Positions 1-34,792 of a DNA stretch of 64,000 nt are shown one piece after another (the first letter of the stretch is position 1; every line of letters starts with the position of its first letter). A program made the translations under genes and the position numbers. A model generated the notes under the pieces. It saw only the letters and a list, made by a program, of their open reading frames with translations, did no database searches and was not told the origin of the DNA. The DNA is from Candidatus Portnoybacteria bacterium RIFCSPLOWO2_01_FULL_43_11 (GTDB lineage Bacteria > Patescibacteriota > Minisyncoccia > Portnoybacterales > UBA2143): positions 10 through 64,009 of the forward strand of contig MHNE01000017.1 in the NCBI GenBank assembly GCA_001819605.1, read 5' to 3'.

Positions 1-983
1 ATTTTTCTAAAATTCCCGGCTTGGGATTTAAAAAAGAAAATCAGGTTATTCTTACTTCTTTTCGGGATTTAATTCCGGATATTAATATTTTGCCTATCCC
101 CTCCTATGAACTTTTTAACATTAAAAAATACTGGGGGCCTTATACTTCAAGAACGCCGTTTATGATTATGACAAGGTCAAGGGGCTGTCCGTTTCTCTGC
201 ACTTTCTGCGGGGTAACCAAAATGTTCGGCCGAAGATACCGGGTCCAGACGCCTCAAAGAAGCATCAAAGAGGTTGATTATTTGGTCAATCAGCTGGGCA
301 TCAAAGAAATCGGTTTTAAAGACAGCGAGTTTACTCTTGACCCCAGAAATGTTGAAGAGTTCTGCGATCTCCTTATAGAAAGAAATTATGATCTGACTTG
401 GAACTGCAACGGCCGAGTTAATCATGTCACTCCTTCTCTTTTAGCTAAAATGAAGCGAGCCGGCTGTTATTCCATCACCTACGGCATTGAATCGGGCGAC
501 CAAAAAATCTTGGACAATATCAAAAAACAAATTACTCTTCCGCAAATTAGAGAAACAATGAAAATGACCCGCGAAGCCGGCCTTCAGGTTATCGGCAATT
601 TTATGATCGGAAATCCGGGCGATACGAGAAAAACAATTAAAAAAACAATTGATTTTGCCAAAGAATTAAAGCTGGATTACGCTTATTTTGGTTTTACCAC
701 TCCATTTCCGGGCACTGAATTAAGGGACGAGGCCATTAAAAACGGCTGGATTTTAGATAAAAGCATGGAAGCGGTAAAATACGAAGACTGCATAATGAAC
801 GCCACAAGTTTACCGACTCAAGAATTAAAAACTTATCTCAATAAAGCCTACCGCTCTTTTTATTTCAGACCTTCTTATATTTTTAAAAGATTAAAAAAAC
901 TAAGCAGAAACGAAATGTATAATTCCGTGAGGGGCGCCTGGGCCATATTCAAAGACGGCTTAAGGGTAAAATTTAATTCTTAA
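1..983 (+). CDS. B12-binding-domain radical SAM protein, C-terminal part (the 5' end lies outside the window)
   Basis: The frame is open from nt 3 (FSKIPGLGFKKENQ...), and this aligns with the mid-protein ILGLVFKKDGQ segment of the paralog at 990..2408. It has the cluster motif RSRGCPFLCTFCG and the C-terminal tail YRSFYFRPSY shared with the paralogs. Confidence 0.8.
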   Translation, partial: FSKIPGLGFKKENQVILTSFRDLIPDINILPIPSYELFNIKKYWGPYTSRTPFMIMTRSRGCPFLCTFCGVTKMFGRRYRVQTPQRSIKEVDYLVNQLGIKEIGFKDSEFTLDPRNVEEFCDLLIERNYDLTWNCNGRVNHVTPSLLAKMKRAGCYSITYGIESGDQKILDNIKKQITLPQIRETMKMTREAGLQVIGNFMIGNPGDTRKTIKKTIDFAKELKLDYAYFGFTTPFPGTELRDEAIKNGWILDKSMEAVKYEDCIMNATSLPTQELKTYLNKAYRSFYFRPSYIFKRLKKLSRNEMYNSVRGAWAIFKDGLRVKFNS

Positions 984-989
984 ACTTTT

Positions 990-2408
990 ATGAGAATACT
1001 GCTTATCAACCCAAGTCTTCATCAAGCCACCACCGGCCAATACAAAGAAGATGTGGAAAAAGGACGAGGCGTTTATCCCCCCTTGGGATTGGCTTATATC
1101 GCCGCGGTTCTTCTAAAAAACAATCATCAGGTAAAAATGATTGATTACGATATTGAAGGAAGCGAAGCGGAAATTAAAATTGAAAATACCTGCCGCGATT
1201 TTAAGCCGCAAATAGTCGGTTTTTACGCGATGACCTGGTCATACGGACAGGCAAAACGACTGGCGAAAAAAATCAAAGAAATTGACAGAAATATCATAGC
1301 CCTTATCGGCGGGCCAAACGCAACTTGCTTGCCCGAGCCAACTCTTGAATTCGGGGATTTTGATTTTGGCATTTTAGGCGAAGGGGAAGAAACGATAATT
1401 GAATTAATTGAAAAACTGGAAGGAAAAAACAACTTAGAATTTGAAAAAATTTTAGGACTGGTTTTTAAAAAAGACGGACAGATTATCATTAATCCGCCCC
1501 GGCCCTTGATAAAAGATTTAAACGCAATTCCTTTTCCGGCCAGACATCTTTTGCCCATTAAAAAATATTTTGATGTTTTTTCCCGCGAGAAACGCTTTGC
1601 CACGATTATTGCCACCCGCGGCTGTCCTTTCAACTGCGTTTTTTGCGACAGAAAAAATAGAATGGGCCGGACCTGGCGCATGAGGTCGCCCGAAAATATT
1701 GAACAAGAAATTAAAGAAGTGATTGACCAATACGGCATCAGGGAATTTATGTTTTTTGACGATAATTTTATTATTGATAAAGAATGGGCCTACGAGGTCT
1801 GCGAGCGGCTTAAAAAATTAAACATTATCTGGGAATGCCGGGAAAGAGTTGATATGGTGGACGAACCAATTTTAAGGGCTATGAAGAGCGCCGGCTGCTA
1901 CCGGATTAGATTTGGTTTTGAATCCGGTGATAACCGAATTCTTAACGTTTTAAAAAAAGGAATCACCGTTGAACAATCCTTAAAGTGCGCCCAAATTTGT
2001 AAAAAAATCGGTCTGGAAATTTATGGATACTTCATGATTGGCGCGCCCGAAGAAACGCCTCAAACCATAGAAAGAACAATTAATTTAGCTTTAAAAATTG
2101 AGCCGAGCTTTGCTATTTTCAGTAAAACCATCCTGATTCCCGGGAGTGAACTTTTTGAATACGGAGTCTCAACCGGCCAAATTGACAAAGACTATTGGCC
2201 GCGATTCCTTTTGGGTCGGGAAACCAACGGCGCCCCTTCTCTGTCAAGCGAATTATTGCCGGAAAAATTGGTTGACCAATATGTGAAAAAAGCGGACAGA
2301 AAATTCTATTTCCGATTAAAATTTATATTTAAAAAAATCTTGGAAGTTAAAAGCTTCAAGCATCTTATCAGCCAAGCAAGAATCGGGTTTGCTTTATTAT
2401 TTAAATAA
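990..2408 (+). CDS. B12-binding-domain radical SAM protein
   Basis: N-terminal Rossmann-like part (MRILLINPS..., IGGPNATCLP, GEGEETIIELI) followed by ATRGCPFNCVFCD (CxxxCxxC). The gene starts 7 nt after the upstream gene. Confidence 0.85.
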   Translation: MRILLINPSLHQATTGQYKEDVEKGRGVYPPLGLAYIAAVLLKNNHQVKMIDYDIEGSEAEIKIENTCRDFKPQIVGFYAMTWSYGQAKRLAKKIKEIDRNIIALIGGPNATCLPEPTLEFGDFDFGILGEGEETIIELIEKLEGKNNLEFEKILGLVFKKDGQIIINPPRPLIKDLNAIPFPARHLLPIKKYFDVFSREKRFATIIATRGCPFNCVFCDRKNRMGRTWRMRSPENIEQEIKEVIDQYGIREFMFFDDNFIIDKEWAYEVCERLKKLNIIWECRERVDMVDEPILRAMKSAGCYRIRFGFESGDNRILNVLKKGITVEQSLKCAQICKKIGLEIYGYFMIGAPEETPQTIERTINLALKIEPSFAIFSKTILIPGSELFEYGVSTGQIDKDYWPRFLLGRETNGAPSLSSELLPEKLVDQYVKKADRKFYFRLKFIFKKILEVKSFKHLISQARIGFALLFK

Positions 2409-2414
2409 TTTCTT

Positions 2415-3374
2415 ATGAAATTTCTCGGTAAAATATTCAGCCGCTGGTATATCATTATTGGTTTTCTAATTTTCTTTTATATTGTTTTTTATAAAATTGA
2501 CGTTTCAAAAGTTTTAGAAACGCTTTCAAAAACCAATCTGTATTTAGTCGGCTTGGTAATTCTCCTTGTCTTTTCAATGTCTCTGGTTCAACCGGCCAGA
2601 TGGAACTATCTTAAAAAAGTCCAAAATATCAATTATCGGCTTAAAGATTCTTTTTTGATTTATAACGCCGGCTTTTTTTTCTCCGCTATTACGCCAGGCC
2701 ATCTTGGGGACCTGATTAAAATATTCTACTTAAAAAAAGACGGCCATTCAGTGGGCAAATCGCTCGTAAGCGTTCTTTTAGACCGCGCCTCTGACATATT
2801 ATTTCTCCTCTTGGTCGGTTATGTAAGTATGTATTTTTTTGCCCAATTTTTCCTAAAATACATCATAACCATAACCATCGTCGGGCTTTCTGTTTTATTG
2901 TTTATTTTTATCTTTCAAAGGAAGAAATTTTTAAAAATCGCCTTCCAAAAAATTATTCTTTCAATAATCCCGGTTAAATATCAAAAATCATGGCATCTGA
3001 ATTACCATGATTTTGTTATTAGTATCGCAATTTATAAATTTAAAAATTACTTTATTCTTTCGCTGGTTACCATTTTTAACTGGTTTATCTACTATCTAAG
3101 TGTGTTCTTATTGGCGAAAAGCATCGGCTTGGACAATATTCCTTTTATATTTTTAGCTATGTCAATCACTTTAGCCACTTTAGCCACGCTTATCCCGATT
3201 TCAATTTTCGGTCTTGGCACAAGAGACGCCTCTCTTCTTTTCTTTTTCTCTTTTTTTGGCGTCAGCCCGGAACAAACCATAAGTTTTTCAACTCTGTATT
3301 TATTGATGCTTTTAATCACCGCCTCCATCGGATTCATTTGCTGGCTTAAAAAACCGTTGAGGTTTAGATCTTGA
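2415..3374 (+). CDS. Polytopic membrane protein, flippase-like (LPG_synthase_TM / UPF0104-like)
   Basis: About 8 predicted TM helices. It carries the ARWNYL...ITPGHLGDLIKIFYLKK motif typical of PF03706-type proteins. It is a paralog of 22378..23319. Confidence 0.6.
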   Translation: MKFLGKIFSRWYIIIGFLIFFYIVFYKIDVSKVLETLSKTNLYLVGLVILLVFSMSLVQPARWNYLKKVQNINYRLKDSFLIYNAGFFFSAITPGHLGDLIKIFYLKKDGHSVGKSLVSVLLDRASDILFLLLVGYVSMYFFAQFFLKYIITITIVGLSVLLFIFIFQRKKFLKIAFQKIILSIIPVKYQKSWHLNYHDFVISIAIYKFKNYFILSLVTIFNWFIYYLSVFLLAKSIGLDNIPFIFLAMSITLATLATLIPISIFGLGTRDASLLFFFSFFGVSPEQTISFSTLYLLMLLITASIGFICWLKKPLRFRS

Positions 3375-4430
3375 AATTATTTTTTTTGCCAATAGTGGCC
3401 ACATTGAAAAATTATTAACAATACTGTTCTGAATCGCGTTCTCAAAAGTGCAGACGCAATTTTTATCTTTGATAAACTTAAAAATTTCTTTGGTCTTGTC
3501 TTGAGACAAGATTTTTTTAATATCATAATCAAAATCCCTTAGACTTCCGAATTCAAAATTCAGCATCTCGCACGGCTTCACCAAACCGGTTTCGGAAATA
3601 ATAATCATCTTTCTGCCGGCGGAACAGGGATAAAATCGCTTTCTGCCTCTTAAAACCTGATAAATTATATCGCGGGCCGCTAATTTATTGCCCGCGATTA
3701 TTCCTGAAAATGTAAAACCTGAACTGAAATTCCTTTCTTCTTTATCAACCAACTCCCTGACCTCGCGATAATCCGATGCTCTGATGTTTTTACTCTCCTT
3801 CTCACGAGTGTCGCCCCTGGCCCAACAGAAATCAAAAACCGCTTCAGGCATTTCGCTCCTAACAAAATCCATCACTTGTTTGACTTTTTTGTAATTAAAA
3901 GCCGAAACGGTCATATTGATCATTATTTCAAAATCCTTAACTTGTTTTTTCAGCTTAGCCAAATTTTTGTAATTCGCCCTTACTTTTTCAAAAGCGCCCG
4001 GCACCCCCCTGATTTCGTCGTGGTCTTTACCCACTCCGTCAAGAGAAAGACATAATTTTAAATACGGGTTTCTGGTTGTTTTTAAAATTTCCTCAACTGT
4101 TTCCTTTATTTTCTCTGTCATTAAAGAATTTGTCGGAATACTCAAAAATTGAACCTGATTATTTTTATCAAAAATGCGGGCAATAGCCGGCAAGTCGTTT
4201 CTAATACTCGGCTCGCCGCCGGTTAAAGTCGCATACTCTAAAAATCCAAAAGATTTAGAAATTCTTTCTATTTCCCCCAAAGACAATTCATTTGCTCTGT
4301 CGACCTTATCAATATTCTTCCAATAAAAACACATTTTACAGCGGGCGTTACAGCCGGCCGTGACATATAAAATTATGTAAGTCGGAGTTTTAGAAAACAA
4401 ATTTCTAAAACTACGCAGATATTTATTCAT
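3312..4430 (-). CDS. Radical SAM protein with Cys-rich (SPASM/twitch-like) C-terminus
   Basis: N-terminal YVTAGCNARCKMCFYW (CxxxCxxC) and a GGEP motif (LTGGEPSIRND). C-terminal Cys pattern YPCSAG...KPCEM...NCVCTFENA. It is a paralog of 29831..30919. Confidence 0.75.
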   Translation of the reverse strand: MNKYLRSFRNLFSKTPTYIILYVTAGCNARCKMCFYWKNIDKVDRANELSLGEIERISKSFGFLEYATLTGGEPSIRNDLPAIARIFDKNNQVQFLSIPTNSLMTEKIKETVEEILKTTRNPYLKLCLSLDGVGKDHDEIRGVPGAFEKVRANYKNLAKLKKQVKDFEIMINMTVSAFNYKKVKQVMDFVRSEMPEAVFDFCWARGDTREKESKNIRASDYREVRELVDKEERNFSSGFTFSGIIAGNKLAARDIIYQVLRGRKRFYPCSAGRKMIIISETGLVKPCEMLNFEFGSLRDFDYDIKKILSQDKTKEIFKFIKDKNCVCTFENAIQNSIVNNFSMWPLLAKKIISRSKPQRFFKPANESDGGGD

Positions 4431-4438
4431 ATATTAAA

Positions 4439-5950
4439 TCAAGCGCTTTGACGCTTAAGTAAAATCTCAAAGGGCAGAATAAAAAATTTATGCTTTAATC
4501 TGAAAGTCACCCATTGGTTAATTAAAGCATAAATTCCCAAATATTTTAGAATTTTATTTTTAAGCCGGTATTGTCTCATAGCCAGAAATTCTTTACTGGT
4601 GATTCTTTTAAACATAAACAAAATCCTTAAAAGCATTACCAAACGATACTGCTCATCAGTTACCCACGGCGTTACCCGTTCTGATAAATCAATTCTCCCC
4701 CACGATTCTAAATCTTTTGGCTCTTTAAAACCTCGTTGAACGCTCTCTTTATATAATTCAGTGCCGTAATAAGGAGTGTAAAAAAACAAAAATACCCGCG
4801 CCAAAGGATTCGTTTCATAAATTTTACTGGCCAGATCAACAGTCGCGCTTAATTCTTTTCTCCATGATTTTTCATAATCAGCCGCGTTATCGGTTAAAGG
4901 CGGAAAACCGGTCATAAAAGACTCAATCAGCTGAATATCATATTTTTTAGCCAAGGCCTCGCATTTAACCAGATCTTCCACGGTTGAACGTTTATTAATC
5001 AGGTTGAGCATATCCTGATCACCGGATTCTGCTCCAATTAAAAGCTCCCTAAACCCGGCTTTTTTCATTAATCGCCAAGTTTCCGGACTGTATTTGTTTA
5101 CTTGTTCGGCTCTGGCGTTGGCCCAAATAATGCCGATTTTTATGTTTCTTTCTAAAAGCCCTTCACAGATTTTTTTAACCCGTTGTTCGTCCACGCAAAA
5201 ATTAGAATCCCTTAAATCAACAGCGTCAATATTATATTCTTTAACAAGATTTTCAATCTCGTTAATCACCCGCTCGGCCGAATAGCTATCCCAGCGGCTC
5301 TTAAAAGACGAATTACTCACATAACAAAAACGGCAGTTAAAAGGACACCCCTGACTAGTTATGTAAGACAAAGTGCGTTTATCTCCGTAGTCGGTTTTTT
5401 TCAGATATTTTTCTATATTCCAAAGCAGATGATAAGGTAGAGCGGGAAATTTCTCCAATTTCTCAAGCGGCCGCTCGGGGTTATTGATGATTTGGTCATC
5501 TTTTTTATAAGTCAATCCCAAAATATCGCCAAACGGTTCTTTCTTGTCCAGCCGATGAACCAGTTCGGTAAAGGTAATCTCGCCCTGACCTTTAACTATA
5601 ATATCAACCAAGGGATGTTTTATGGTTTGTACCGGTAAGATTGTCGGATGAATGCCGCCCCAGATAATCGGCACAGTTTTATTTTTCCGGCGGACCAAAT
5701 CGGCAAACCGCAATCCGTCGGTTATCTGGTACCCGGTCATTGCCGTGATTCCAACACAAATCGCCTTATCTAAATGATTTAGAGCTTTCAAATAATATTC
5801 TTCGTCATAAGAATGGAATATTTTTATATCATAACCTTCTGAATCTAAGTAGCTGGAGATAGCCAAAAGACCCATCGGCGCGATTCGGCGTCCTTTGGGC
5901 GTCGGTTGGGGAGAAAATAATAAGATAAACTTGTCTTTATATTCAAGCAT
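4439..5950 (-). CDS. B12-binding-domain radical SAM protein
   Basis: WGGIHPTILP, GQGEITFTELV, TSQGCPFNCRFCY. Confidence 0.85.
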   Translation of the reverse strand: MLEYKDKFILLFSPQPTPKGRRIAPMGLLAISSYLDSEGYDIKIFHSYDEEYYLKALNHLDKAICVGITAMTGYQITDGLRFADLVRRKNKTVPIIWGGIHPTILPVQTIKHPLVDIIVKGQGEITFTELVHRLDKKEPFGDILGLTYKKDDQIINNPERPLEKLEKFPALPYHLLWNIEKYLKKTDYGDKRTLSYITSQGCPFNCRFCYVSNSSFKSRWDSYSAERVINEIENLVKEYNIDAVDLRDSNFCVDEQRVKKICEGLLERNIKIGIIWANARAEQVNKYSPETWRLMKKAGFRELLIGAESGDQDMLNLINKRSTVEDLVKCEALAKKYDIQLIESFMTGFPPLTDNAADYEKSWRKELSATVDLASKIYETNPLARVFLFFYTPYYGTELYKESVQRGFKEPKDLESWGRIDLSERVTPWVTDEQYRLVMLLRILFMFKRITSKEFLAMRQYRLKNKILKYLGIYALINQWVTFRLKHKFFILPFEILLKRQSA

Positions 5951-5964
5951 ATTTTTTTTATGAA

Positions 5965-6930
5965 TTATTTTTTAAACATATAACCGAGAACGGAAAGACC
6001 GGCTCCCAAAGCGGTTAAAAAACAAAATAATAAATCCAAAAAAACAAAAGAAGGAATTAAATAAACTTTTTTTTCTTTAAATAGAAAAACATAAAAGCCG
6101 AAACTATAAAAAACATAAATAAAGAAAATCAAAATGAGAAAATAAAAAACTAAAGGAGCGAAAAACGATAAAATAAAAAGAGGTAAAACTAAGGCCCCAA
6201 TTAGAGTTTTAACTCCTCTCTCTTTAGTTGAATAAACCGGATCAAATTTTTTTCTTTTTAAAAACAATCTAATCCACTGCCAGCTTCGTTTTAAAGTCTT
6301 TTTAATTGATTGCTTAAAAGTTTCAAAGTGATGAAGGACTTTAATTTCTCGGGTAATGTAGATCTTAAAGCCGGCTTTATTCAAACGATAGCCGAATTCA
6401 AAATCCTCAACATCGGCTTTTTTATATTTTTCGTCAAAATATCCAACTCTTTCAAAAATATTTTTTTTAACGGCTGATCGCTCGGTGGTAAAAGAGCTCT
6501 GAAATTCGCCCGGCTGATTCCACAAATAATATTTATAATAGGCCCAAAAAAGCGGGGTTAAGCCATCATTTAATGGGGTTTTATCTTTAATCATAATCAC
6601 GCCGTCAATTTCCGGTTTTTTCTTAAAAACCTCCGCTAATCTTTTTAGGGCATAATTACCTTTAAAAGCCACGTCAGAATCAATAAAAATAACGATCTCG
6701 CCTTTAGCTTCTTTAATGCCTCTGTTTCTGGCCGCGGCCGGGCCGGAGTTTCTTTCTAATAATACCTGACGAACTTTATATTGTCCAACTATCTGCTCTG
6801 TCTTATCTATTGAACAATCATTAATCACAATCACCTCAAAATCAGAAAAGTCTTGCTTCATTACGGAATCTAAACATTTTTTAATTGTTTTTTCGGCGTT
6901 GTAAGCCGGAATAATAATGCTGAATAACAT
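5965..6930 (-). CDS. Family 2 glycosyltransferase with C-terminal TM helices
   Basis: FSIIIPAYNAEKTI..., VIVINDCSIDKT, and FIDSDV (DxD). The C-terminal part is hydrophobic. Confidence 0.85.
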   Translation of the reverse strand: MLFSIIIPAYNAEKTIKKCLDSVMKQDFSDFEVIVINDCSIDKTEQIVGQYKVRQVLLERNSGPAAARNRGIKEAKGEIVIFIDSDVAFKGNYALKRLAEVFKKKPEIDGVIMIKDKTPLNDGLTPLFWAYYKYYLWNQPGEFQSSFTTERSAVKKNIFERVGYFDEKYKKADVEDFEFGYRLNKAGFKIYITREIKVLHHFETFKQSIKKTLKRSWQWIRLFLKRKKFDPVYSTKERGVKTLIGALVLPLFILSFFAPLVFYFLILIFFIYVFYSFGFYVFLFKEKKVYLIPSFVFLDLLFCFLTALGAGLSVLGYMFKK

Positions 6931-6937
6931 AAAAAAA

Positions 6938-8650
6938 TCACCTGATTAAATTCATCAGCCAGCTTTTAGTTTTTGAAACCTTTGGCTGACTTAAATCTAT
7001 CTCATCGGTTGTAATATTTTTTACGGAAGAATTCTCTAAAATTTCCCTGGTTAATTCCGGCGAATACCCTAAAATATAAGATACTCTGAATTTATCAAAA
7101 GCAATACTTAACTCGCCTTTTTTTATCAGCTTCTCAATAGTCTCCGGCGCAAAGACCACCATTGATTTATTGGTCAGATAATTCAATTCTGCCCATTCAG
7201 TTCCCGGGACATTAACCGCAATAACTTCTTTGTCGTTGATTTCTAATTTGTTCACTTCCCGGGCATAAACCGAAGCCATTAGAGGCGTCTCGCTGTCGTA
7301 TTCTCTCCCCCATAAAACATGGTCGGATAAAATAAGATTGTATAAAACCAAAAACGGAAGAAAAAACATTATTATCTTTTTCCCTCTTTCTCCCAACTTA
7401 AAATGCGCGGTTAAAATTTGAACCAGAAAAATTGTTCCCAAAGCAACTAAAAGAGGGATGGCCCAGCCGAAATCCATTAAATGGGTACGCCTGCCCATCA
7501 CAATAAAGGATATTGTAAAAATTGCAAAAATAATCCAAAAAACAAAAAACCGGAATAAGTATTTATTTTTCTGGTAAAGATAAATAAAACCAAAAATGAA
7601 CAAAATAAAAATAAACGGCCCGCCTATATCCTCAATAGATAAAAACCGAGAAAGATGCCTCATTAAAAGAGCGACGCCAATTTTAAACCTGGAAAATAAA
7701 TCTGGTTTTTTAAATCCTAAAAAATCAATCTCTTTTGCCATTTCAATCTTTTGGAAAAAATCCGTCTCCGAAAACAAAAGTTCGGCCTCGTATCCTTTTA
7801 AAAATTCCTCCCGGCCAAAATGATAAGTGTAAGGATCCGGAAAAAGATGGCTGTAAAAACCATAATCTAAAAAGTCTTTTCTTAACTCCCCGGTTTTGCC
7901 CCCAAGAAAAAAACTATAAGTATTTTCTCCGAAAAGCATACCCGGCAGCCAAAAAAGAGAAACTAAAACAATGAAAGGGACAAAAACGGCCAAGAGATAA
8001 ACTCTTTGTTTTTGAAAAAATAAGAAGAGGAGGAGAACCGGAGCCAAGAGAAACATCGCTTCTTTGGCCAAGCCGGCCAAAGCCAGAAAAATTCCGGCTA
8101 AAATCAGAAATAAATACTTAAATCTGAATATGTTTTTCTTTCCTAAGGAGAAAAATAAAAAAAACAAAGATAAAAAGAGTAAAGCAAACTCGTAGGTGCC
8201 GAAATTATACAAAGTTGACTGCCAAAAAAAGGGGGACAAAATATAAATAAAAGAAAATAAAAGTGCGGTCCTGAAATTAAAGGATAAATAAACCGTCAAA
8301 GTGAAAAACAAAAGAGATAGACCTAAAATTACGGCCGGGAAAAAAATCAGATTTTCGTATTGAGGCAGGCCAAAAACCTTAAAAAGCTCGCCGTAAATAA
8401 GAGCGGTCAATTTATTGCCGCTGATTGATGGATTGGCGTTTTCTTTCACTAAAGGAGGACTAACGACGATATTTAAATCGTCTTCAATGCCAAAAACTCC
8501 GAATTGAGCGTAATTACGCGCCAAAAGAAGCGCGTCGCGCGAAATTAAGGTAGAATGCTCCTTAAACAAAACGGGCGAATACCAGATAATCACAGCTAAG
8601 GGAACCACTATGAATAAAAGTAAAACGGGTTTTAATTTTTCTTTAAGCAT
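6938..8650 (-). CDS. Large polytopic membrane protein, tandem paralog A (possible GT-C-type transferase; function unknown)
   Basis: More than 10 hydrophobic segments. It shares WYSPVLFK, DPYTYHF, IEDIGGP, YNLILS.HVLWGR and an identical C-terminal KSWLMNLIR with 8655..10493. Confidence 0.5.
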   Translation of the reverse strand: MLKEKLKPVLLLFIVVPLAVIIWYSPVLFKEHSTLISRDALLLARNYAQFGVFGIEDDLNIVVSPPLVKENANPSISGNKLTALIYGELFKVFGLPQYENLIFFPAVILGLSLLFFTLTVYLSFNFRTALLFSFIYILSPFFWQSTLYNFGTYEFALLFLSLFFLFFSLGKKNIFRFKYLFLILAGIFLALAGLAKEAMFLLAPVLLLFLFFQKQRVYLLAVFVPFIVLVSLFWLPGMLFGENTYSFFLGGKTGELRKDFLDYGFYSHLFPDPYTYHFGREEFLKGYEAELLFSETDFFQKIEMAKEIDFLGFKKPDLFSRFKIGVALLMRHLSRFLSIEDIGGPFIFILFIFGFIYLYQKNKYLFRFFVFWIIFAIFTISFIVMGRRTHLMDFGWAIPLLVALGTIFLVQILTAHFKLGERGKKIIMFFLPFLVLYNLILSDHVLWGREYDSETPLMASVYAREVNKLEINDKEVIAVNVPGTEWAELNYLTNKSMVVFAPETIEKLIKKGELSIAFDKFRVSYILGYSPELTREILENSSVKNITTDEIDLSQPKVSKTKSWLMNLIR

Positions 8651-8654
8651 AAAA

Positions 8655-10493
8655 TTACCTGATTAAATTCATTAACCAGCTTTTATTTTTTGAAGTTATT
8701 GGAGGAAAAACCAATAAAGAATCGTCTGAAATATTAATTGCCTCCGTATTTTCTAAAATCTTTTCCGTTAATTCCGGAGAATAGCCCAGGACATAACGTA
8801 TCTCAAATTTATCAAAAGCTTCGGGTAATTTATTTTCCCCAATCAGCTTTTCTGCGGTCTCCGGCGTAAAAACAACCATTGACTTATCAATTAGATAATT
8901 TAATTTATTTATTTTAAACTGATCCAGATTAACCGCAATCACCTCCTTATCGGCAATATCCCGGCTGTCAATTTCTTTAGCGTAAGCCAATATTTTTAAG
9001 TGATGCGGTTCATCGTAAATCCGACCCCATAAAACATGACTGCTTAAAATTAAATTATATAAAACTAAAAAAATCAAAAATAAGCCCGTTATTGCTTTAA
9101 CTTTATTCATCATCTGAAAATACTGAGCTAAAATATCAACGAAAAACAATAAGCCAAGAGCGATAAATAAGGCAATGACCAAGCCAAAATCAATCAAATG
9201 ACTGCGCGCCGCTAAAATCACAAAAGAAAGAACCGAAATAACAAGGATAAGCCAAAAAACAAATAAATTAAACAAGTCTTTGCGTTTTTTTCTTAGAGCC
9301 AAAAAACCTAAAACAAATAATGAAAATATCAAAGGCCCCCCAATATCTTCAATGGCTGAAAATCTAAAAAGATGGCGGGGCAATAAAGAAAATCCCCACT
9401 TGGCTCTTTCTATAAAACCCGGCGCCTCTAAACCAACCTCTAAAGCCCCTTTATTTAAGGCGATTCTCTCTAAAAAAGACAAATCAGCCAACGAACTAAG
9501 ACTGTAATCTCTTAAATATTCTTCTTTCGCGAAATGATAGGTGTAAGGATCGGGATAAAAATGAGAAAGAAAATCCCAGCTTAAAAAATTAGCTTCATTT
9601 GACAAGACCTGCCCTTCTAAAGGAAAAATATATTTTATAATAACCAAATAGGAATTGCCGCCAAAAAATAAATCCGGCAGCCAGAAAAAAAGAATAATGA
9701 TAAAAAAGGGAATAAAAAGACAAAGAAATCTCTTTTTTTCTTTCTTAAACAGTAAATAAATAAAAAAAACCGGCGCGGCTAAAAACATCGCCTCTCTGGC
9801 TAAACCGGTTAAAGCTAAAAAAAATCCTGAAAGAACCGTAAAAATCAACTGGTATCTAAAATTGTTTTTCTCTCCCAAGAAAAAGAAAAGAAAAAATAAG
9901 GAAAAGAAAAAAAGACTGATTTCATAAATGCCGAAATTATAAGGACCGGCCCACCAGTTAAAAGGCAAAAGAATATAGACAAAAGCAAAAAGAGCCGCTG
10001 TTTTAAAATCAAAAAGATAATAAACCGTTAAAGTGAAAATTAAAAGCGTGAGAGCCAAAATTGTTACGGAAACGAAAATAAGTTGTTCAAATTTTACCTG
10101 ACCGGCCAGTCTAAAAATTTGCGCTAAGATAATCGGAGTGAGTTTGTTGCCTTCGGTTGATATTTGAGCGCGCTCTTTTATTAAAGAAGAAGCCAAAACT
10201 ATGTTAAGGTTATCTTCGACGCCGAAAACTCCGGCCCCGGCCAAATTGCGGGCTAAAAGAGAAGTATTCCATAAATTCATCGTTGAATAACCTTTAAATA
10301 GAACCGGCGAATACCAAACTATTGAAGCCGCAAAAAAAATTATTATTAAAAGACTGATTAAATTTAAATAATTTTTAAATTTATCCGGCATTAAAATATG
10401 GTATAGATAAAAGGCCCTAAAGCCGACGATTCGGCTAAAATAATAAAAAAGCTTAAAAGAATCAAAAGGATAATAACGGGAAAAAGCCACCAT
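8655..10493 (-). CDS. Large polytopic membrane protein, tandem paralog B
   Basis: Same conserved blocks as 6938..8650. An SD-like AAGGGTG lies 8 nt upstream of the 10493 ATG. An alternative start at 10391 (MPDKFKNY) would match the paralog's length. Confidence 0.5.
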   Translation of the reverse strand: MVAFSRYYPFDSFKLFYYFSRIVGFRAFYLYHILMPDKFKNYLNLISLLIIIFFAASIVWYSPVLFKGYSTMNLWNTSLLARNLAGAGVFGVEDNLNIVLASSLIKERAQISTEGNKLTPIILAQIFRLAGQVKFEQLIFVSVTILALTLLIFTLTVYYLFDFKTAALFAFVYILLPFNWWAGPYNFGIYEISLFFFSLFFLFFFLGEKNNFRYQLIFTVLSGFFLALTGLAREAMFLAAPVFFIYLLFKKEKKRFLCLFIPFFIIILFFWLPDLFFGGNSYLVIIKYIFPLEGQVLSNEANFLSWDFLSHFYPDPYTYHFAKEEYLRDYSLSSLADLSFLERIALNKGALEVGLEAPGFIERAKWGFSLLPRHLFRFSAIEDIGGPLIFSLFVLGFLALRKKRKDLFNLFVFWLILVISVLSFVILAARSHLIDFGLVIALFIALGLLFFVDILAQYFQMMNKVKAITGLFLIFLVLYNLILSSHVLWGRIYDEPHHLKILAYAKEIDSRDIADKEVIAVNLDQFKINKLNYLIDKSMVVFTPETAEKLIGENKLPEAFDKFEIRYVLGYSPELTEKILENTEAINISDDSLLVFPPITSKNKSWLMNLIR

Positions 10494-15047: not shown

Positions 15048-16529
15048 TTAATGATAATTAGCGGAAAATAAATTTTTAAGACGTTTTTTGACAATTAAAA
15101 AATTCAGCTCCCCCCTAAAAAACATAGCTGTGCCGGCGTAAACAAGTCTCATAAAACGAGAAACATTGGCCGGTATTGCTAATAACCTTGGCCGGGCTAT
15201 AAAATAATCACAGCTTAAAAAACGGACAAACCTTTTCGGAATAAACCGATTGGAAGTAAGAGAGATCAAACTATTCCAGCTATTATGACTAAATTTTATA
15301 AAATAACTATCTAAGGCTTTGGCCTTAAAATCTTCAATATCATTTCGGCCAATAGCGCCCCTTGACAATAATAATTCCGTCAAGTCGGTCTTTGGAAAAT
15401 GAGTCAGCGAATAAAGATGGAGAGCGAACGGTTTTTTAAGTTCTAATAAAAGATCTAAAGTTTCTTTTTCGCCTCCAAACGGCGTATCCATAATAACATC
15501 ATAATCAACCTTTATTTTATGCTTTAAAAGAATTTTATGAAGACTAAGAATTGATTCCCTAAAAGTATGCCTCTTATAAACATCGCGAAGAATTTCTTTG
15601 GAACCAGATTGAATGCCGGTGACCACCTTTCTTAAGCCAGCTGATTTTAAAAGAACTATCATCTCTTCGGTAACTAAATTGGGGTACAAATCAACTTCAA
15701 AGGGCAGATTGATTTCTTTTTTATATTTTTTCGTAAATTCTTTAAGCCATTTAATGTCTGAAACAAACATTTCATCAACAAAAAAAACGCCGTTTAAATT
15801 TCTAAAGTTTTTTTTAACCTCTAAAAGCTCCTCAATAAGAGAATCAACGCTTCGCCATCTGACAAATTTTTCGTGAGGATACAGCTTCTTTAGCGAGTTA
15901 TTTCCGCAATAACTGCAATTAAAAGGACATCCCCTTGTAGCCATGGCCACATATTTAACTTGCTCTAAAATAGGCGTTCCACGATAGATCGTATTGTTGT
16001 CTATCATGTATTCATTATTTTTGTCATAGATAGGCAAAGGTAATTTATTTAAATCAATAAGCGGCCTTATCTTATTTTGCTGATCTTTTGTCCAAAGATT
16101 CTCTATGCCCGGTTTTGACCAAGAAAAATTATTTTTGATTTGAGTTAATTCAAGCATTGGATACTCGCCTTCGCCCCGGCAAATTATATCAACGTATTTC
16201 AAACATTCTTCCGGACAAATAGTCGGATGTATCCCGCCCCAAACTATTAAAGAGTCGATTTCTTTTTTTACTTCATTGGTTAAATCAACCGCTGTCTTAA
16301 AAAAACCAGAACGCAGACTAAAACCGATAATATCTGGTTTAAGCTTTTTTAAGAGCTCAATTAATTTTCTCTTTTCTATTTTACTGGGTGGTTTATTGTT
16401 ATTATTGACTAATTCTTTAAAAAAAATTAAAGAAACATCAAGGCCTTCTTTTTTAAGAACCGAAAATATAGAACGAACTCCTAGGGCTAATTTGTCGTAT
16501 AAAGCGATTAAAACAATTTTTTTGTTCAT
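15048..16529 (-). CDS. B12-binding-domain radical SAM protein
   Basis: WGGIHPTICP, GEGEYPMLEL, ATRGCPFNCSYCGN. Confidence 0.8.
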   Translation of the reverse strand: MNKKIVLIALYDKLALGVRSIFSVLKKEGLDVSLIFFKELVNNNNKPPSKIEKRKLIELLKKLKPDIIGFSLRSGFFKTAVDLTNEVKKEIDSLIVWGGIHPTICPEECLKYVDIICRGEGEYPMLELTQIKNNFSWSKPGIENLWTKDQQNKIRPLIDLNKLPLPIYDKNNEYMIDNNTIYRGTPILEQVKYVAMATRGCPFNCSYCGNNSLKKLYPHEKFVRWRSVDSLIEELLEVKKNFRNLNGVFFVDEMFVSDIKWLKEFTKKYKKEINLPFEVDLYPNLVTEEMIVLLKSAGLRKVVTGIQSGSKEILRDVYKRHTFRESILSLHKILLKHKIKVDYDVIMDTPFGGEKETLDLLLELKKPFALHLYSLTHFPKTDLTELLLSRGAIGRNDIEDFKAKALDSYFIKFSHNSWNSLISLTSNRFIPKRFVRFLSCDYFIARPRLLAIPANVSRFMRLVYAGTAMFFRGELNFLIVKKRLKNLFSANYH

Positions 16530-18280
16530 ATAAATTTATAAATTTTTATATTCTTAACTTCATAGATCCGTTCAAGAAAATTATATTCGTCTAAGCTCCA
16601 TTCGGGATTTAATTGCCCGTCCCAAAGGATATAATCAACCGGATATTTTTTAAAAGCTGACTCTAAGGATATTTGATAAAATTCTGTATATTCATTTAAT
16701 ATTTTTCTAACCATATCGTCAGACGCTTCCTGGTCTTTATCGGTATAGGATAATCTATATTCATAGCCGAGCAAACGGAAAAAAATCTCATCTCTTAAAT
16801 CTCTAAAAAAGAGCTTTTCGGCCATTTCCGGAGTAATTTTATTTAACCGGTATTCCAAGAATAAAACATATAATCTATTTTCCCCGCTAATGGCTTCGTA
16901 ATGAATCCAATGATATCTGTTTTTTATCAAATATTCATCAAGGTGGGTATAAAGATTTACATAGCCGCGCTGACCGGTGTAGCTGATTCCGGTAAAAATT
17001 GACTGTTCTTTTTCCATATTTTGATTAAGCCAATTAAAGACAGAACCGTATTGTTTGGCATAAGCGTTCACTTCACCTTCATTTTTTAAAAAAACAAAAA
17101 TCTGCTGGCCGGTGATTAAATAAAAACCGATGACTGCAAAAACGCTTGTTGATAACCAAAAATATTTTGGGTGTTTATCCTGAATCAAACCGAAAACAAA
17201 CCAGACCAATAAAATAATAACTGTCGGCTTTATGATATACCAATGATAATGAGCCGGCTGAAGAATCCGGCCGGTGATTATCTGCTGATTTAAAACAGTA
17301 AAAAAAGAGATAATCAGGATAGACCAAAACCAAAGATTTTCTCCTCTGATTCTTTTGGTATAAAGATTTAAAAAATATAAAATCAGGACGATTATTAAAT
17401 ACTTGCCGATAATGGGAGAATTAGAAATAATAAAACCGGTTTGGCTGGCTGAAGAATCAAATATTGGATTATTGAGCAGTTTATAAAGATTAAACCAATA
17501 AGGTAGAGCAATTAAAGCGCTTAAAAATATAATCCAGAAAATTTTTTTAAGATTAAGCCAATCTCTTTTAATTAAAAACCAAAGAGCTGAAACAAAAATA
17601 AAAACAACTAAAAAAGTCCAGGTAAAAAAATAAATATAAAAAGAAAGACCAAAACAAATGCCGGCCGGCCAAAGATATCTTTTTTTAGATTGGGTTATGT
17701 ATAAATAGAGAAAAGACAAAAAAGAAAATAAAAGTATCAGGCCAAAAACCGGAACAATCGGCCGGGAAAAAATAGACGGCTCGGGGATAATAAAATTTTT
17801 AGCCAAAAAACTTTTGAATTCCGAGACGGAACCAAGACTATAGTAAAACATCACGCCGACTGATGACACTAAGGCGATTTTTTTATCCGAATTGAATAAA
17901 AGAACGAAAAAATAAATAACTAAAAATAAGAGAGCCGGCAGAATGAATTTAGCCAGAAGAAAAATCTGACTGACTTTTGAGAAAAAGATGCGGCCGAATT
18001 TATACATTAAAGTTTCAGCCAAAGGCGGCTGGATATATGGTTTATCCTGATTAAAAGTCCAAAAAACATTCAAAAAATCAAAATCGCCTTCGGCGATTTC
18101 TTGAAAACGAGCTAAAAAATTCGCTTCGCTGTCAGTGGCTAAAATATTGATGCCTGCGTAATCCGGCCCGGCCTGAATTATAAAAATCACTTGAGGAAAA
18201 ATCATTAAAAAACCGGCTGAAATTGAAAAAATCAAAGCCCAATAATGACGGATGAAGAATTGTTTAATCTGAAAAAACAT
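16526..18280 (-). CDS. Polytopic membrane protein with a soluble C-terminal domain (function unknown)
   Basis: About 12 hydrophobic segments followed by an ~180-aa hydrophilic C-terminus. It has a 4-bp overlap with the downstream radical SAM gene. Confidence 0.45.
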   Translation of the reverse strand: MFFQIKQFFIRHYWALIFSISAGFLMIFPQVIFIIQAGPDYAGINILATDSEANFLARFQEIAEGDFDFLNVFWTFNQDKPYIQPPLAETLMYKFGRIFFSKVSQIFLLAKFILPALLFLVIYFFVLLFNSDKKIALVSSVGVMFYYSLGSVSEFKSFLAKNFIIPEPSIFSRPIVPVFGLILLFSFLSFLYLYITQSKKRYLWPAGICFGLSFYIYFFTWTFLVVFIFVSALWFLIKRDWLNLKKIFWIIFLSALIALPYWFNLYKLLNNPIFDSSASQTGFIISNSPIIGKYLIIVLILYFLNLYTKRIRGENLWFWSILIISFFTVLNQQIITGRILQPAHYHWYIIKPTVIILLVWFVFGLIQDKHPKYFWLSTSVFAVIGFYLITGQQIFVFLKNEGEVNAYAKQYGSVFNWLNQNMEKEQSIFTGISYTGQRGYVNLYTHLDEYLIKNRYHWIHYEAISGENRLYVLFLEYRLNKITPEMAEKLFFRDLRDEIFFRLLGYEYRLSYTDKDQEASDDMVRKILNEYTEFYQISLESAFKKYPVDYILWDGQLNPEWSLDEYNFLERIYEVKNIKIYKFI

Positions 18281-19741: not shown

Positions 19742-21265
19742 TCAATTTAATATTCTTTTTAAATAATGGATAACCCTATCGGGTTTTTTAAAAATAAGTT
19801 TTAAAATTTTAAAATATTCTTTCGGATTTGATAATTTTCTTATTAAATCCAGCCTGCTTATTTTAGCTTCCAACTCGCGGGCAAATTTTTTTAAGTCTTC
19901 CGGCGTAAAATCAGAAGTCTCAATAAGACCAAAACCCCTGGCCTGGGTAGCTAAAGCCAAATCTTTGGAAGTTATATTTTTAACTAAAAAATTTTCTTTT
20001 TGAGAAATCTCATACAGTCTTGTGCCGAACAAAGGAGTGGCAATCATTAAATTTGGTCTGACCCGATATTCCTTGTATAAAGCAAAAGCGAAATCAATAG
20101 TCTTTTGAATATCTTTTTTGGTCTCGCCGGGAAAACCGATGACAAAAAAAGAACGGAGTTTTATCTTGATTTTTCTGCATAATTGGGCTATTTTAAAAAC
20201 ATTTTCCAACCGCAAATTCTTGTTAATAATTTTATCTAAAACTTCCTGACTGCCCGATTCTGTCCCGATTATTAGTTCCTGACAGCCGCTTTTTTTCATT
20301 TTCTTTAAAAGTTTCTCGTTTAAAGTATCTACTCGAACGCCGTTAGGCGTATCCCAGCTGAATTTTATCTTTTTAGTCAAAACTTCATCTAAAATCCGTT
20401 CGCAACGTCTCGGATTAAATGTAAAATTATCGTCTTCAAAAGAAATGTGTTTAACTTTATAATCGCTAATAACTCTTTCAATATGGTTTACCACATATTC
20501 AACAGAATGAAAACGCCAGATTCTCCCCATATGAAGATGAATTGAGCAAAAAACGCAGTTATAAGGACAGCCGCGGCTCGTAATCATTGAAATAGAACGA
20601 TTATATTTGGTCGGCCGGGCTGATAAGTCGTAAGACAAAAAAAAATATCGCTCCATATCCATCAGATGATAAGCCGGCAAGGGCAGTTCGTCTATTTTTT
20701 TAATAACTGTCCAAGGATTGGTAAAAATCTTTTCCTCCCTTTCTTGATTATCTGAAAAACGATAAACTACATTACTTATTGCTTTTAAAGACCTTTTGTC
20801 TTTAATCGCTTTAGCCAATTCAAGCATCGCTAATTCTCCTTCGCCTACCACCGCCGCGTCAATGTTTTTATTCTCTTTTAAAAAATCTGCTCCTTTTACC
20901 GAGGCGTGAGGACCGCCAATAACGACAAAAATATTGGGATTAATTTGTTTAACTAAATCAGCCGCCCGAACAGCGTTATGGATTTGAGCGCTGAACGGGC
21001 CGCCGATACCGACAAGAGCCGGCTCCTCCCGGCTGACAACATCTTTAAAATAATCTTCTGAAACGCCATGATAAAGAAAATTATCTTTTTCAATAATTTC
21101 CGTTTTTTCAGAAATTAAACTGTCAAATATCTTAACGGCGCAGCCGTTTTCCTCTAAAACAGCCGCGATATACATTAAACCCAAAGGCAAACCCAGCCGC
21201 ACCCCTTTCGACCCCTGAAAATATGTTCTTGGAGGGTTAATCAATAAGATTTTCATAAATGTCAA
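19742..21265 (-). CDS. B12-binding-domain radical SAM protein
   Basis: IGGPHASVKG, GEGELAMLEL, TSRGCPYNCVFCSI. The likely true start is MKILLINPP at 21256. Confidence 0.85.
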   Translation of the reverse strand: MTFMKILLINPPRTYFQGSKGVRLGLPLGLMYIAAVLEENGCAVKIFDSLISEKTEIIEKDNFLYHGVSEDYFKDVVSREEPALVGIGGPFSAQIHNAVRAADLVKQINPNIFVVIGGPHASVKGADFLKENKNIDAAVVGEGELAMLELAKAIKDKRSLKAISNVVYRFSDNQEREEKIFTNPWTVIKKIDELPLPAYHLMDMERYFFLSYDLSARPTKYNRSISMITSRGCPYNCVFCSIHLHMGRIWRFHSVEYVVNHIERVISDYKVKHISFEDDNFTFNPRRCERILDEVLTKKIKFSWDTPNGVRVDTLNEKLLKKMKKSGCQELIIGTESGSQEVLDKIINKNLRLENVFKIAQLCRKIKIKLRSFFVIGFPGETKKDIQKTIDFAFALYKEYRVRPNLMIATPLFGTRLYEISQKENFLVKNITSKDLALATQARGFGLIETSDFTPEDLKKFARELEAKISRLDLIRKLSNPKEYFKILKLIFKKPDRVIHYLKRILN

Positions 21266-22355
21266 TATATTGCTTAGCCACCTTAACCCAATCCATCTTT
21301 TTTGCCAATTCTTCTCCGTTCCCGCCTAATTTTTCTCTCAGATCTTTATTATCAAGAATCTTTTTCACCGCTTTAGCCGTTTCTTTAATATTGTTCTGCG
21401 GCACCAATAAACCGTTAAAATTTGGTCTTATAATATCCTCGGCCCCGCAGCCAAAAGTGCCGATAACCGGTTTGGCGCAAGCGCCGGCTTCCAAATAAAC
21501 CAAACCGAATCCCTCGAATTTAGTATCTTCAATGCTTATCGGCGTCAGTAAAAAAAGATCTGCCTGACAATAAAGCTTAATTAAATCCTCATCGGAAATA
21601 TTCTCCAAAAATACGACATTATCATCAAGCCGATATTTTTTCACTAATTCTTTCAGGTATTTGAAATAATCCTTATTCTTTTGGTTGCCGACTATGTAAT
21701 ATTTTAAATCGGGATATTGTTTTTTAACTTTAGCCGCGGCCGGAATAGATATGTGATAACCCTTGCGAAACATAAGTGCCCCGACACTAATAATAGTTTT
21801 AGTATTATCTCCGGCTTTACGAAACATTCCAAATGTCTGAAATTTCTTGTAATCAATGCCGTTATTAATAACTAAAGTATTATTGACCTGAATTTGTTTT
21901 AAAAATTGATTTTGAGTAAATTTACTAACGCAGATTATTTTTCTGGCTCTTCTGTAAACCCTAGAATACACTTTCCTTAGAAGTCGTTTTTTAAAAGGAA
22001 AAACAGCGTAAGTGCCGTGAAGAGTAATGATTAACGGCTTACGGCGATTGATCAGATAAACAATCGGCCCATAGGGCTCAATCAAACTATGCACAATGTC
22101 CGATTCTTTTATTAATTTACGAATTTTTCCATAATTCCTGATTAAAGAAAGAATTTTTATCGCTCGCGAACCGAATAAGGGAGGCAATACCTTATAAACG
22201 TCTATTTGAGGCAGAGCGTTTTCTTCGGTTTTTTCAGAAACTAAAACACGGCAATTAATTTCCCTTTTTCTCATAAGCTGATTAAGAAGCCCCGTTGAAT
22301 AATTCCCCCAGCCGTGCTTGGAGGATAATTCATTGGTTAAAAAACAAATTCTCAT
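21237..22355 (-). CDS. Family 4 (GT-B) glycosyltransferase
   Basis: C-terminal EGFGLVYLEAGACAKPVIGT (EX7E-type motif). N-terminal MRICFLTNE...GWGNY. Confidence 0.85.
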   Translation of the reverse strand: MRICFLTNELSSKHGWGNYSTGLLNQLMRKREINCRVLVSEKTEENALPQIDVYKVLPPLFGSRAIKILSLIRNYGKIRKLIKESDIVHSLIEPYGPIVYLINRRKPLIITLHGTYAVFPFKKRLLRKVYSRVYRRARKIICVSKFTQNQFLKQIQVNNTLVINNGIDYKKFQTFGMFRKAGDNTKTIISVGALMFRKGYHISIPAAAKVKKQYPDLKYYIVGNQKNKDYFKYLKELVKKYRLDDNVVFLENISDEDLIKLYCQADLFLLTPISIEDTKFEGFGLVYLEAGACAKPVIGTFGCGAEDIIRPNFNGLLVPQNNIKETAKAVKKILDNKDLREKLGGNGEELAKKMDWVKVAKQYIDIYENLID

Positions 22356-34758: not shown

Positions 34759-34792
34759 TTTTTAAAAATATGTAGCCCCGTTTAATATCAAT

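Follow-up and report, generated by a model that had tools for sequence, protein, structure and literature searches.

In a stretch of 64,000 nucleotides (nt) of contig MHNE01000017.1 from Candidatus Portnoybacteria bacterium RIFCSPLOWO2_01_FULL_43_11, here termed the window, a gene for a cobalamin (B12)-dependent radical S-adenosylmethionine (SAM) enzyme (B12-rSAM) is followed twice by a gene for a membrane protein of family PF03706. Comparison with related loci revealed that this pair is the 3' half of a larger cassette, which consists of a family 2 glycosyltransferase (GT2) of the polyprenyl-phosphate type, zero to four tailoring genes, the PF03706 gene and, usually, a gene for a membrane protein of about 570 amino acids. 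B12-rSAMs are the commonest tailoring genes of this cassette. We favour, with moderate confidence, the reading that it is a modular lipid-carrier system for decorating the cell surface, mainly in Patescibacteria (the Candidate Phyla Radiation, CPR), in which the radical SAM enzyme would tailor a lipid-linked sugar before this is flipped across the membrane. All positions given below are those of the window unless a locus (L) is named.

Conserved gene order around the PF03706 proteins

Module 1 is located on the plus strand and consists of the B12-rSAM gene w990 (990..2408; 472 amino acids; PF02310, E 2e-21; PF04055, E 2.3e-25) and, after a gap of 6 nt, the gene of PF03706 copy 1 (2415..3374; 319 amino acids; 153.8 bits). 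Module 2 is encoded on the minus strand by w23329 (23329..24729; 466 amino acids; PF02310, E 1.7e-20; PF04055, E 2.4e-25) and, after 9 nt, by PF03706 copy 2 (22378..23319; 313 amino acids; 155.4 bits). An earlier note on this DNA had listed these pairs of open reading frames (ORFs) and motifs shared by the two membrane proteins; coordinates and gaps were exactly as given there, and the motifs were present as quoted. On the source contig, module 1 extends beyond the window to the order GT2, rSAM, rSAM, PF03706. The first ORF of the window (3..983, plus strand; ORF at 21-983, with the frame open to the window start; PF04055, E 2.3e-25) is the 3' part of a further B12-rSAM, w21, which in full comprises 465 amino acids with PF02310 and PF04055 (L001:7172-8569) and belongs to the same HpnJ-like clade as w990. 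The GT2 gene (302 amino acids, L001:6267-7175) lies just outside the window, and genes for Bac_transf, an epimerase and a DegT aminotransferase are found farther upstream on the same contig.

A scan of species-representative genomes, for which a tighter PF03706 alignment was used as the broad one was too diverse, yielded 31 loci, mostly from Patescibacteria, and these were annotated with hidden Markov models (HMMs) built from the window's proteins. The order GT2, B12-rSAM, PF03706 on one strand was observed around PF03706 relatives of 60, 53, 46, 38, 36 and 29% identity, sometimes with methyltransferases, a PF01522 deacetylase, a SPASM rSAM or an amidotransferase inserted, and the membrane protein of about 570 amino acids usually adjoined. 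A PF03706 relative of 25% identity was found in an STT3/Alg13/Alg14-type cluster without rSAM. In 14 of 30 loci, PF03706 either had a B12-rSAM directly upstream on its strand or was fused to one, where 2.95 were expected under random order within each locus (binomial P 2.5e-7); across other genomes, the adjacency on which the earlier note had relied is far beyond chance. Counting an rSAM anywhere in the upstream operon, the number rose to at least 18 of 30. A polyprenyl-phosphate-type GT2 was present upstream of PF03706 in 21 of 25 loci, and a relative of the membrane protein of about 570 amino acids (the MEM570 family) occurred no more than three genes downstream in 17 of 27. In a second search, which started from close relatives of w990 in metagenomes and whose loci were not de-replicated against the genome loci, all 18 assessable loci had a GT2 upstream, and PF03706 followed within the operon in 12 of 17. 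By the counts of both searches, neither gene has a more constant partner than the GT2. The two-gene pair of the earlier note is therefore not the unit as such, as the GT2 is more constant and other tailoring enzymes can take the place of the rSAM.

In loci without rSAM, the slot between GT2 and PF03706 was occupied by class I methyltransferases, which are frequent as cassette cargo, by a deacetylase together with a formyltransferase, by an Asn-synthase-type amidotransferase, by an FrhB-like Fe-S flavoprotein fused to a methyltransferase, or by a nitroreductase. The deacetylase version is represented by L037 (5541-8948), with the order GT2, PF01522 deacetylase, formyltransferase, PF03706 and a chemistry that resembles the Arn (aminoarabinose) pathway on a lipid carrier. 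The same frame occurred, together with an rSAM, in a locus whose PF03706 protein is labelled Bacteroidetes, and it was also present in L077; L012 displayed the order GT2, deacetylase, rSAM, PF03706.

The flavoprotein version was found in five loci labelled Woesearchaeota or 'Methanosarcinales' (L022, L028, L034, L036 and L039), in the order GT2, FrhB-like Fe-S flavoprotein, PF03706 and without rSAM; their PF03706 proteins share 37-44% identity with copy 1. The L022 flavoprotein forms a fusion of 556 amino acids with a methyltransferase, and ORFs of equal length occupy the slot of L028, L034 and L036. These loci represent either spread across domains or mis-binning. In L057 (about 7.6-9.3 kb), a 564-amino-acid protein of unassigned family takes the place of PF03706 after GT2, rSAM and rSAM. 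A further cluster, on plasmid pDMC1 of Solidesulfovibrio magneticus (L050; NC_012797.1, 22-27 kb), encodes a VTT/DedA protein, two GT2s and a B12-rSAM without PF03706. DedA-family proteins have been implicated as undecaprenyl-phosphate flippases, and by analogy this cluster may be a similar arrangement with a different membrane partner.

The rSAMs occupying the slot between GT2 and PF03706 almost all belonged to the clade of w990, w23329 and w21, and the other paralog types of the window were located elsewhere in the islands. PF03706 and its partner rSAM are co-inherited: 17 PF03706 proteins and the rSAMs directly upstream of them gave neighbour-joining trees with the same subclades, and the distance matrices were correlated with a Mantel r of 0.56, a value reached by none of 5000 permutations. 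In addition, a natural fusion was identified in one lineage, a 797-amino-acid protein comprising a complete B12-rSAM and a complete PF03706 protein. A second fusion, 80% identical, originates from an independent assembly, and a sequencing error can therefore be excluded. As the fusion shows, the two can function within a single polypeptide. Its arrangement puts the PF03706 N-terminus on the cytoplasmic side and the rSAM at the membrane surface, likewise cytoplasmic with respect to the first transmembrane segment.

The two modules of the window are ancient paralogous lineages. w990 and w23329 share 35% identity (274 bits) and, of the B12-rSAM paralogs compared, each is the best match of the other, with w21 in the same group, and the two membrane proteins share 30% identity (E 4e-24). 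Among 16 paired relatives, copy 2 was the most distant from copy 1, and w23329 ranked 14th of 16 in its distance from w990. In the PF03706 tree, copy 2 is basal to the copy-1 clade and has its own orthologs at 56-79% identity. w990 orthologs at 57-75% identity were found upstream of PF03706 in other genomes, and orthologous pairs of module 1 are present in L007, L008, L017 and L019 (w990 67-75%, PF03706 about 53-60%). The corresponding pair of module 2 is present in L047, with a w23329 ortholog (75%) directly upstream of PF03706 (60%). Two PF03706 genes per island also occur in L032 and L043. The 'duplicated module' of the earlier note does not hold if it is meant as a recent event, since pairwise comparison and trees show deep paralogous lineages; a recent segmental duplication is ruled out by the tree distances together with the separate orthologous pairs of each module.

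Family and fold of the cassette proteins

Both membrane proteins belong to PF03706, as the earlier note had assumed. The profile covers copy 1 at positions 6-296 and copy 2 at positions 5-300 of 302 (E ~1e-45), i.e., end to end and far above the cut-off of 33.4, and TIGR00374 ('flippase-like domain') accepts the two copies with 86.6 and 73.3 bits at a cut-off of 43.2. An AlphaFold2 (AF2) model of copy 1, built from a 66-sequence alignment, was confident (predicted local distance difference test, pLDDT, 89.7; predicted TM-score, pTM, 0.86). When this model was used for a fold search of the PDB, the best six matches were all MprF structures (7f47, 9goe, 6lvf, 7duw, 9j8q and 9j8s; probability 1.00, TM 0.56-0.63), and the next match had a probability of 0.28. 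Searched against the PDB by sequence alone, the PF03706 profile gave no MprF match; the likeness to MprF was thus provided by the fold search. Judged by the model, copy 1 has the fold of the MprF flippase domain. Membership in MprF proper was rejected, as PF03706 is the sole domain, the DUF2156 synthase domain is absent and NF033480 scored 15 bits (E 0.0049) against a cut-off of 600. Since they lack the synthase domain, both copies are stand-alone flippase-type domains, which would be expected to translocate lipids. HpnL (TIGR03476) was likewise rejected: neither copy matched at E <= 1, at a cut-off of 195.65 and with 340 bits for a true HpnL.

The translations of both paired rSAMs contain the CxxxCxxC motif (RGCPFNCVFC in w990, RGCPFYCTFC in w23329), and by domains and motif the enzymes are assigned to class B, the cobalamin-dependent radical SAM enzymes. 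Their clade is large, with about 4,500 relatives at E <= 1e-10. The best NCBIfam match was HpnJ, with 232.3 bits for w990, 243.9 for w23329 and 199.1 for w21. Membership in the HpnJ equivalog (TIGR03471) was rejected, as these scores are far under the cut-off of 577.6 and a true HpnJ reaches 843 bits. A hopanoid context (shc, encoding squalene-hopene cyclase, hpnH or hpnI) was absent among the annotated neighbours in the window's first 36 kb and in the related loci. The nearest solved relative of w990 is AprD4 (6fd2, E 5.7e-27), followed by TokK, CysS and OxsB. Matches to ApyD and rSAM_ocin would suggest a role in ribosomally synthesised and post-translationally modified peptide (RiPP) formation; this was set aside, as all genes of the context are glycan or lipid-carrier genes and the operon holds no precursor-like gene.

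Some further observations concern the radical SAM enzymes of the window and the related islands. Eight B12-rSAMs and two SPASM-matching rSAMs within about 36 kb imply a heavy cobalamin demand in an organism that is unlikely to make cobalamin. In L012 (6961-7892), a ferredoxin and an FAD/NAD(P)-binding reductase are encoded directly downstream of PF03706 and likely represent a dedicated electron supply for radical SAM enzymes. A B12-rSAM fused to an NAD-dependent epimerase/dehydratase was found in L008 (1-166; 861 amino acids, running off the locus) and as the first ORF of L018. The second ORF of L054 (1189 amino acids) scores as B12-rSAM and may be another multi-domain fusion.

The best NCBIfam matches of the module-1 GT2 were AglJ (118 bits), PpgS (90), dolichyl-phosphate (Dol-P)-hexose transferase (81), PgfS (75) and ArnC (62), all under the respective equivalog cut-offs. 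The GT2s at 34793, of L076 and of L077 likewise matched polyprenyl-phosphate-sugar synthases best. For the MEM570 family, a profile was constructed from 25 relatives. Nine of these 25 members gave PMT_2 matches at profile positions 6-151 of 160, all of them sub-threshold (best 9.7e-6; 19-24 bits at a cut-off of 26.1), and the membrane protein downstream in L077 also had a weak PMT_2 match. A sequence search of the PDB with the 25-member profile returned nothing meaningful.

The glycan island

The window's first 36 kb represent a dense cell-envelope glycan island of about 30 genes (35.7% GC). The island encodes eight B12-rSAM paralogs, two radical SAM enzymes with SPASM matches, one of which is below the Pfam cut-off, as well as GT2s, family 4 glycosyltransferases (GT4s), a Wzx-like flippase, a carbamoyltransferase, an SGNH protein, a PMT_2 glycosyltransferase of the C type (GT-C) and three large membrane proteins without Pfam match. 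B12-rSAMs account for about a quarter of the island genes, and because of this high density the adjacency within the window alone is weak evidence.

Convergent to module 1, the minus strand encodes a radical SAM enzyme with a weak SPASM match (3312..4430; PF04055, E 1.8e-16; SPASM, E 0.009 and 16.7 bits at a cut-off of 21.5, thus sub-threshold). Its 3' end overlaps that of PF03706 copy 1 by 63 nt (3312-3374), an arrangement that also occurs in L007, L017 and L040. Next to it in coordinate order, on the same strand, are the B12-rSAM paralog w4439 (4439..5950; PF02310 and PF04055), which clusters with w18292 and not with w990 or w23329, and a GT2 that is EpsD/TuaG-like and not of the polyprenyl-phosphate type (5965..6930; PF00535, E 9e-35; NCBIfam EpsD, 114 bits). 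In L008 (10443-12500, minus strand), a 685-amino-acid fusion of GT2 and radical SAM/SPASM combines the domains that are separate neighbours in the window (5965-6930 and 3312-4430). The gene next to this GT2 in the window encodes MEM570 (6938..8650, minus strand), a conserved multi-pass membrane protein and candidate GT-C without Pfam or NCBIfam match. Its paralog MEM612 (8655..10493, minus strand) is 51% identical, and the MEM612 HMM picks up the same proteins as that of MEM570. A more distant paralog of about 21% identity, MEM584, is encoded at 16526..18280 on the minus strand and has no Pfam match.

Around module 2, all genes listed here are on the minus strand. Two B12-rSAM paralogs, which domain search and paralog comparison placed in other clades, are located at 18292-19734 and 19742-21265; an ortholog of w18292 (67%) sits downstream of PF03706 in L047. 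A GT4 gene (21237..22355; PF00534, E 6e-41) is directly downstream of copy 2, and a class I SAM methyltransferase gene (24722..25252; PF08241, E 1e-5) is directly upstream of module 2. The head of the long gene run containing module 2, which is presumably an operon, is formed at 31931..35473 by a polyprenyl-phosphate-type GT2 (34793-35473; AglJ 137.7 bits, PpgS 83, Dol-P-hexose transferase 69), a B12-rSAM (33325-34758) between the two others, and a PMT_2 GT-C (31931-33328; E 1.2e-10). A third polyprenyl-phosphate-type GT2, encoded at 42798-43751, is clearly ArnC-like (ArnC, 194 bits).

A proposed lipid-carrier pathway and its alternatives

In the pathway that we propose, an AglJ/PpgS/ArnC-like GT2, as assigned by family, would load one sugar on polyprenyl phosphate at the cytoplasmic face of the membrane. 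One to three B12-rSAMs of the HpnJ-like clade would then tailor the lipid-linked sugar at the membrane surface, sometimes joined by SPASM rSAMs or methyltransferases; the reaction would most likely be a C-methylation, or alternatively a ring rearrangement of the HpnJ type. PF03706, as suggested by its modelled fold, would move the tailored lipid-linked sugar to the outer leaflet, with the rSAM probably docking on it and in one lineage being part of the same polypeptide. The membrane protein of about 570 amino acids, possibly a GT-C, may finally transfer the sugar to an extracytoplasmic acceptor, probably the glycan that the island's Bac_transf/Wzx genes produce. The protein families, the modelled PF03706 fold, the synteny, the clade specificity of the slot, the co-inheritance and the fusion are established by the observations above; from these we infer the lipid acceptor, the substrate and reaction of the rSAM, the flipping and the final transfer. 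The suggestion of the earlier note, namely radical chemistry on a lipid-linked substrate followed by translocation, agrees with the GT2 at the operon head, the gene order and the fusion, and as to the activities it stays a prediction.

Several known systems share this logic. In the three-component systems GtrA/GtrB/GtrX, ArnC/ArnD/ArnE-F/ArnT and CsbB/GtcA/YfhO, a GT2 loads undecaprenyl phosphate, the sugar is optionally tailored on the lipid (ArnD deformylase), and a small flippase and a GT-C at the outside follow. In the cassette described here, however, the flippase would be PF03706 rather than GtrA or the EmrE-like ArnE/F, the tailoring enzyme is a B12-rSAM, and the GT-C partner is a candidate only. 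Cobalamin-dependent rSAMs that tailor carbohydrates are known from secondary metabolism as MoeK5 and the C-methylases GenK/GenD1. Sugar tailoring by a B12-rSAM would be common to both, but those enzymes have no PF03706 partner. At a stringent network threshold, HpnJ groups with Fom3 and MoeK5 (PMC9204698).

A close parallel in family composition is provided by hopanoid clusters, in which hpnI (GT2), hpnJ (B12-rSAM) and hpnL (PF03706 superfamily) bring the same three families side by side. On plasmid pPHS1_P of Paraburkholderia graminis, hpnJ, hpnI and the HpnL gene are adjacent and co-directional (HpnJ 843, HpnI 496, HpnL (TIGR03476) 340 bits). HpnL aligns over its full length to the window's PF03706 family (hhalign probability 85%), indicating remote homology only. 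Based on a deletion mutant, the reaction of HpnJ has been proposed to be a ring contraction of glucosamine that is linked to a lipid. The logic is alike, with a sugar on a lipid, tailoring by a deacetylase (hpnK) and a radical enzyme, and an associated membrane protein, and the L012 variant has a deacetylase too. In contrast, the GT2 of the window is of the polyprenyl-phosphate type and not HpnI, the genes are ordered differently, and a large membrane protein, possibly a GT-C, is an additional partner. The operons HexSDF of C. difficile and GpgSDF of P. aeruginosa encode a lipid glycosyltransferase, a deacetylase and a PF03706/COG0392 protein, for which flipping has been inferred as well. Module 1 and its relatives share with them the combination of glycosyltransferase, tailoring enzyme and stand-alone PF03706 protein in one operon. 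There, however, a GT4/monogalactosyldiacylglycerol (MGDG)-synthase-type enzyme acts on glycerolipids, the product is a membrane glycolipid and no GT-C is present, whereas the window modules lack a deacetylase and have a GT2 instead.

In archaea, a neighbourhood of arCOG00899 (PF03706), arCOG00897 (AglD-like GT2) and arCOG00563 (PMT/STT3-like) has been described, as well as a second PF03706 context with a deacetylase and a glycosyltransferase, and all COG0392 members were predicted to flip lipid-linked saccharides (Makarova, Galperin, Koonin 2015). The combination of a dolichyl- or polyprenyl-phosphate GT2, PF03706 and a PMT/STT3-like protein is the same, and the AglD GT2-PF03706 fusion parallels that of rSAM and PF03706. 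No radical SAM enzyme is named in the archaeal neighbourhood, in contrast to the CPR loci, which are bacterial and have an expanded tailoring slot; radical SAM partners are mentioned neither in that analysis nor in the survey of PplT. Our literature search identified no description of this cassette in CPR bacteria, nor of the radical-SAM version or the fusion. The remark of the earlier note that the pairing is not a described functional unit applies, thus, to the radical-SAM version and the fusion, but not to the arrangement as such, for which the hopanoid, HexSDF/GpgSDF and archaeal systems are precedents. The cassette is of a known kind, consisting of a lipid-linked sugar synthase, a tailoring enzyme, PF03706 and, with or without it, a GT-C; new are the radical-SAM tailoring and the enzyme-flippase fusion.

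A number of points weigh against the proposed pathway. The locus statistics were not corrected for phylogeny, and the ORFs are our own simple calls. Roughly half of the loci have no rSAM directly beside PF03706, and in roughly a third it is absent from the operon; because so many loci lack an adjacent or any operon rSAM, its coupling to PF03706 is facultative. Module 2 has no adjacent polyprenyl-phosphate GT2, the nearest one (34793-35473) being located about 11 kb upstream in the same gene run, and the module-1 GT2, with all its scores below the cut-offs, is a putative polyprenyl-phosphate-sugar synthase. AprD4 acts on a soluble aminoglycoside, and the epimerase fusions suggest that some rSAMs of related islands may act on nucleotide sugars. 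In the literature, translocation has not been demonstrated for any stand-alone PF03706 protein, and HexF and GpgF are dispensable for product formation. A GT-C role of MEM570 is weakly indicated: the PMT_2 search gave no match for the window's own MEM570, MEM612 and MEM584, hhalign of the MEM570 profile against three PMT_2-like single sequences reached non-significant probabilities of 0.5-18%, and the AF2 model built from the three window paralogs was of low confidence (pLDDT 39.4).

Some of these points would fit an rSAM that acts on a soluble nucleotide sugar before the GT2 step, with PF03706 only flipping the finished product and the adjacency reflecting a shared operon. The substrate of AprD4, the B12-rSAM-epimerase/dehydratase fusion in related islands (L008) and the nearby epimerase and DegT aminotransferase genes speak for this rather unlikely alternative. 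However, the order is almost always GT2, rSAM, PF03706, the fusion with PF03706 tethers the enzyme to a membrane protein, the epimerase-fused rSAM is a different gene from that in the slot between GT2 and PF03706, and HpnJ, the best family match, has been proposed to act on a lipid-linked sugar.

The role of PF03706 itself could also be a different one. It may be a membrane scaffold or a substrate-presenting subunit, which would keep the lipid head group in place for the cytoplasmic enzymes, or itself an enzyme, with another protein being responsible for flipping. The missing demonstration of flipping and the dispensability of HexF and GpgF for synthesis are in line with this, HpnL is without assigned function in the literature, PplT/YbhN of E. 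coli binds several lipid-synthesis enzymes, PF03706 is found fused to many kinds of enzymes, and the rSAM fusion would suit a docking role. We nevertheless regard a scaffold as unlikely, as the fold search of the PDB pointed to the MprF flippase domain alone, and the gene is positioned between those of cytoplasmic tailoring enzymes and of a large, possibly GT-C, membrane protein. In addition, the Wzx-like gene of the island lies outside the cassette, and docking and flipping are compatible.

We assign a small probability to a cassette that works on a structural lipid of the membrane and whose product, a glycolipid with a modified head group, would remain there, by analogy with HexSDF, GpgSDF and HpnIJK. 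All three studied operons containing PF03706 act on structural lipids, HpnJ is the best family match of the rSAMs, and the deacetylase variant in L012 and L037 mirrors HpnK, HexD and GpgD. The GT2, however, matches polyprenyl/dolichyl-phosphate sugar synthases best and not the HpnI or MGDG-synthase types, the large, possibly GT-C, membrane protein is a regular neighbour, and in other respects the islands, with Bac_transf, Wzx and Wzy, have the make-up of typical carrier-lipid glycan loci. Finally, chance adjacency, for which eight B12-rSAMs among about 30 genes in the first 36 kb would give a probability of about a quarter per copy for the observed order, is highly improbable and was rejected based on the 14 of 30 loci against 2.95 expected, i.e., the within-locus enrichment, as well as on the clade-specific slot, the congruent trees and the fusion protein.

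The tailoring of a lipid-carrier-linked sugar prior to flipping is therefore the reading that we retain, and it provides a testable substrate hypothesis for a very large uncharacterised clade of B12-rSAMs. Going further, we tentatively propose that an undescribed B12-rSAM family, with thousands of members mostly in Patescibacteria, acts directly on polyprenyl-phosphate monosaccharides, either docked to an MprF-type flippase or as a fusion with it, and that the products may be C-methylated or ring-rearranged (carbocyclic) surface sugars. By the same logic, the role of HpnL in hopanoid clusters would be that of a membrane partner or flippase of the product of HpnJ. Enzyme-flippase fusion and co-inheritance are also relevant to the hypothesis, as yet unproven, that flipping of lipid-linked head groups is a general function of stand-alone PF03706 proteins. 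The cassette leaves current understanding in place. Even if the model proves wrong, a well-defined conserved synteny remains for proteins that annotation pipelines now label only 'radical SAM protein' and 'flippase-like domain-containing protein'. For the CPR bacteria, the findings point to an unusual surface-sugar chemistry and a strong cobalamin dependence. Given the tiny genomes and the host dependence of these bacteria, surface structures and cofactor requirements are relevant to their attachment and survival.

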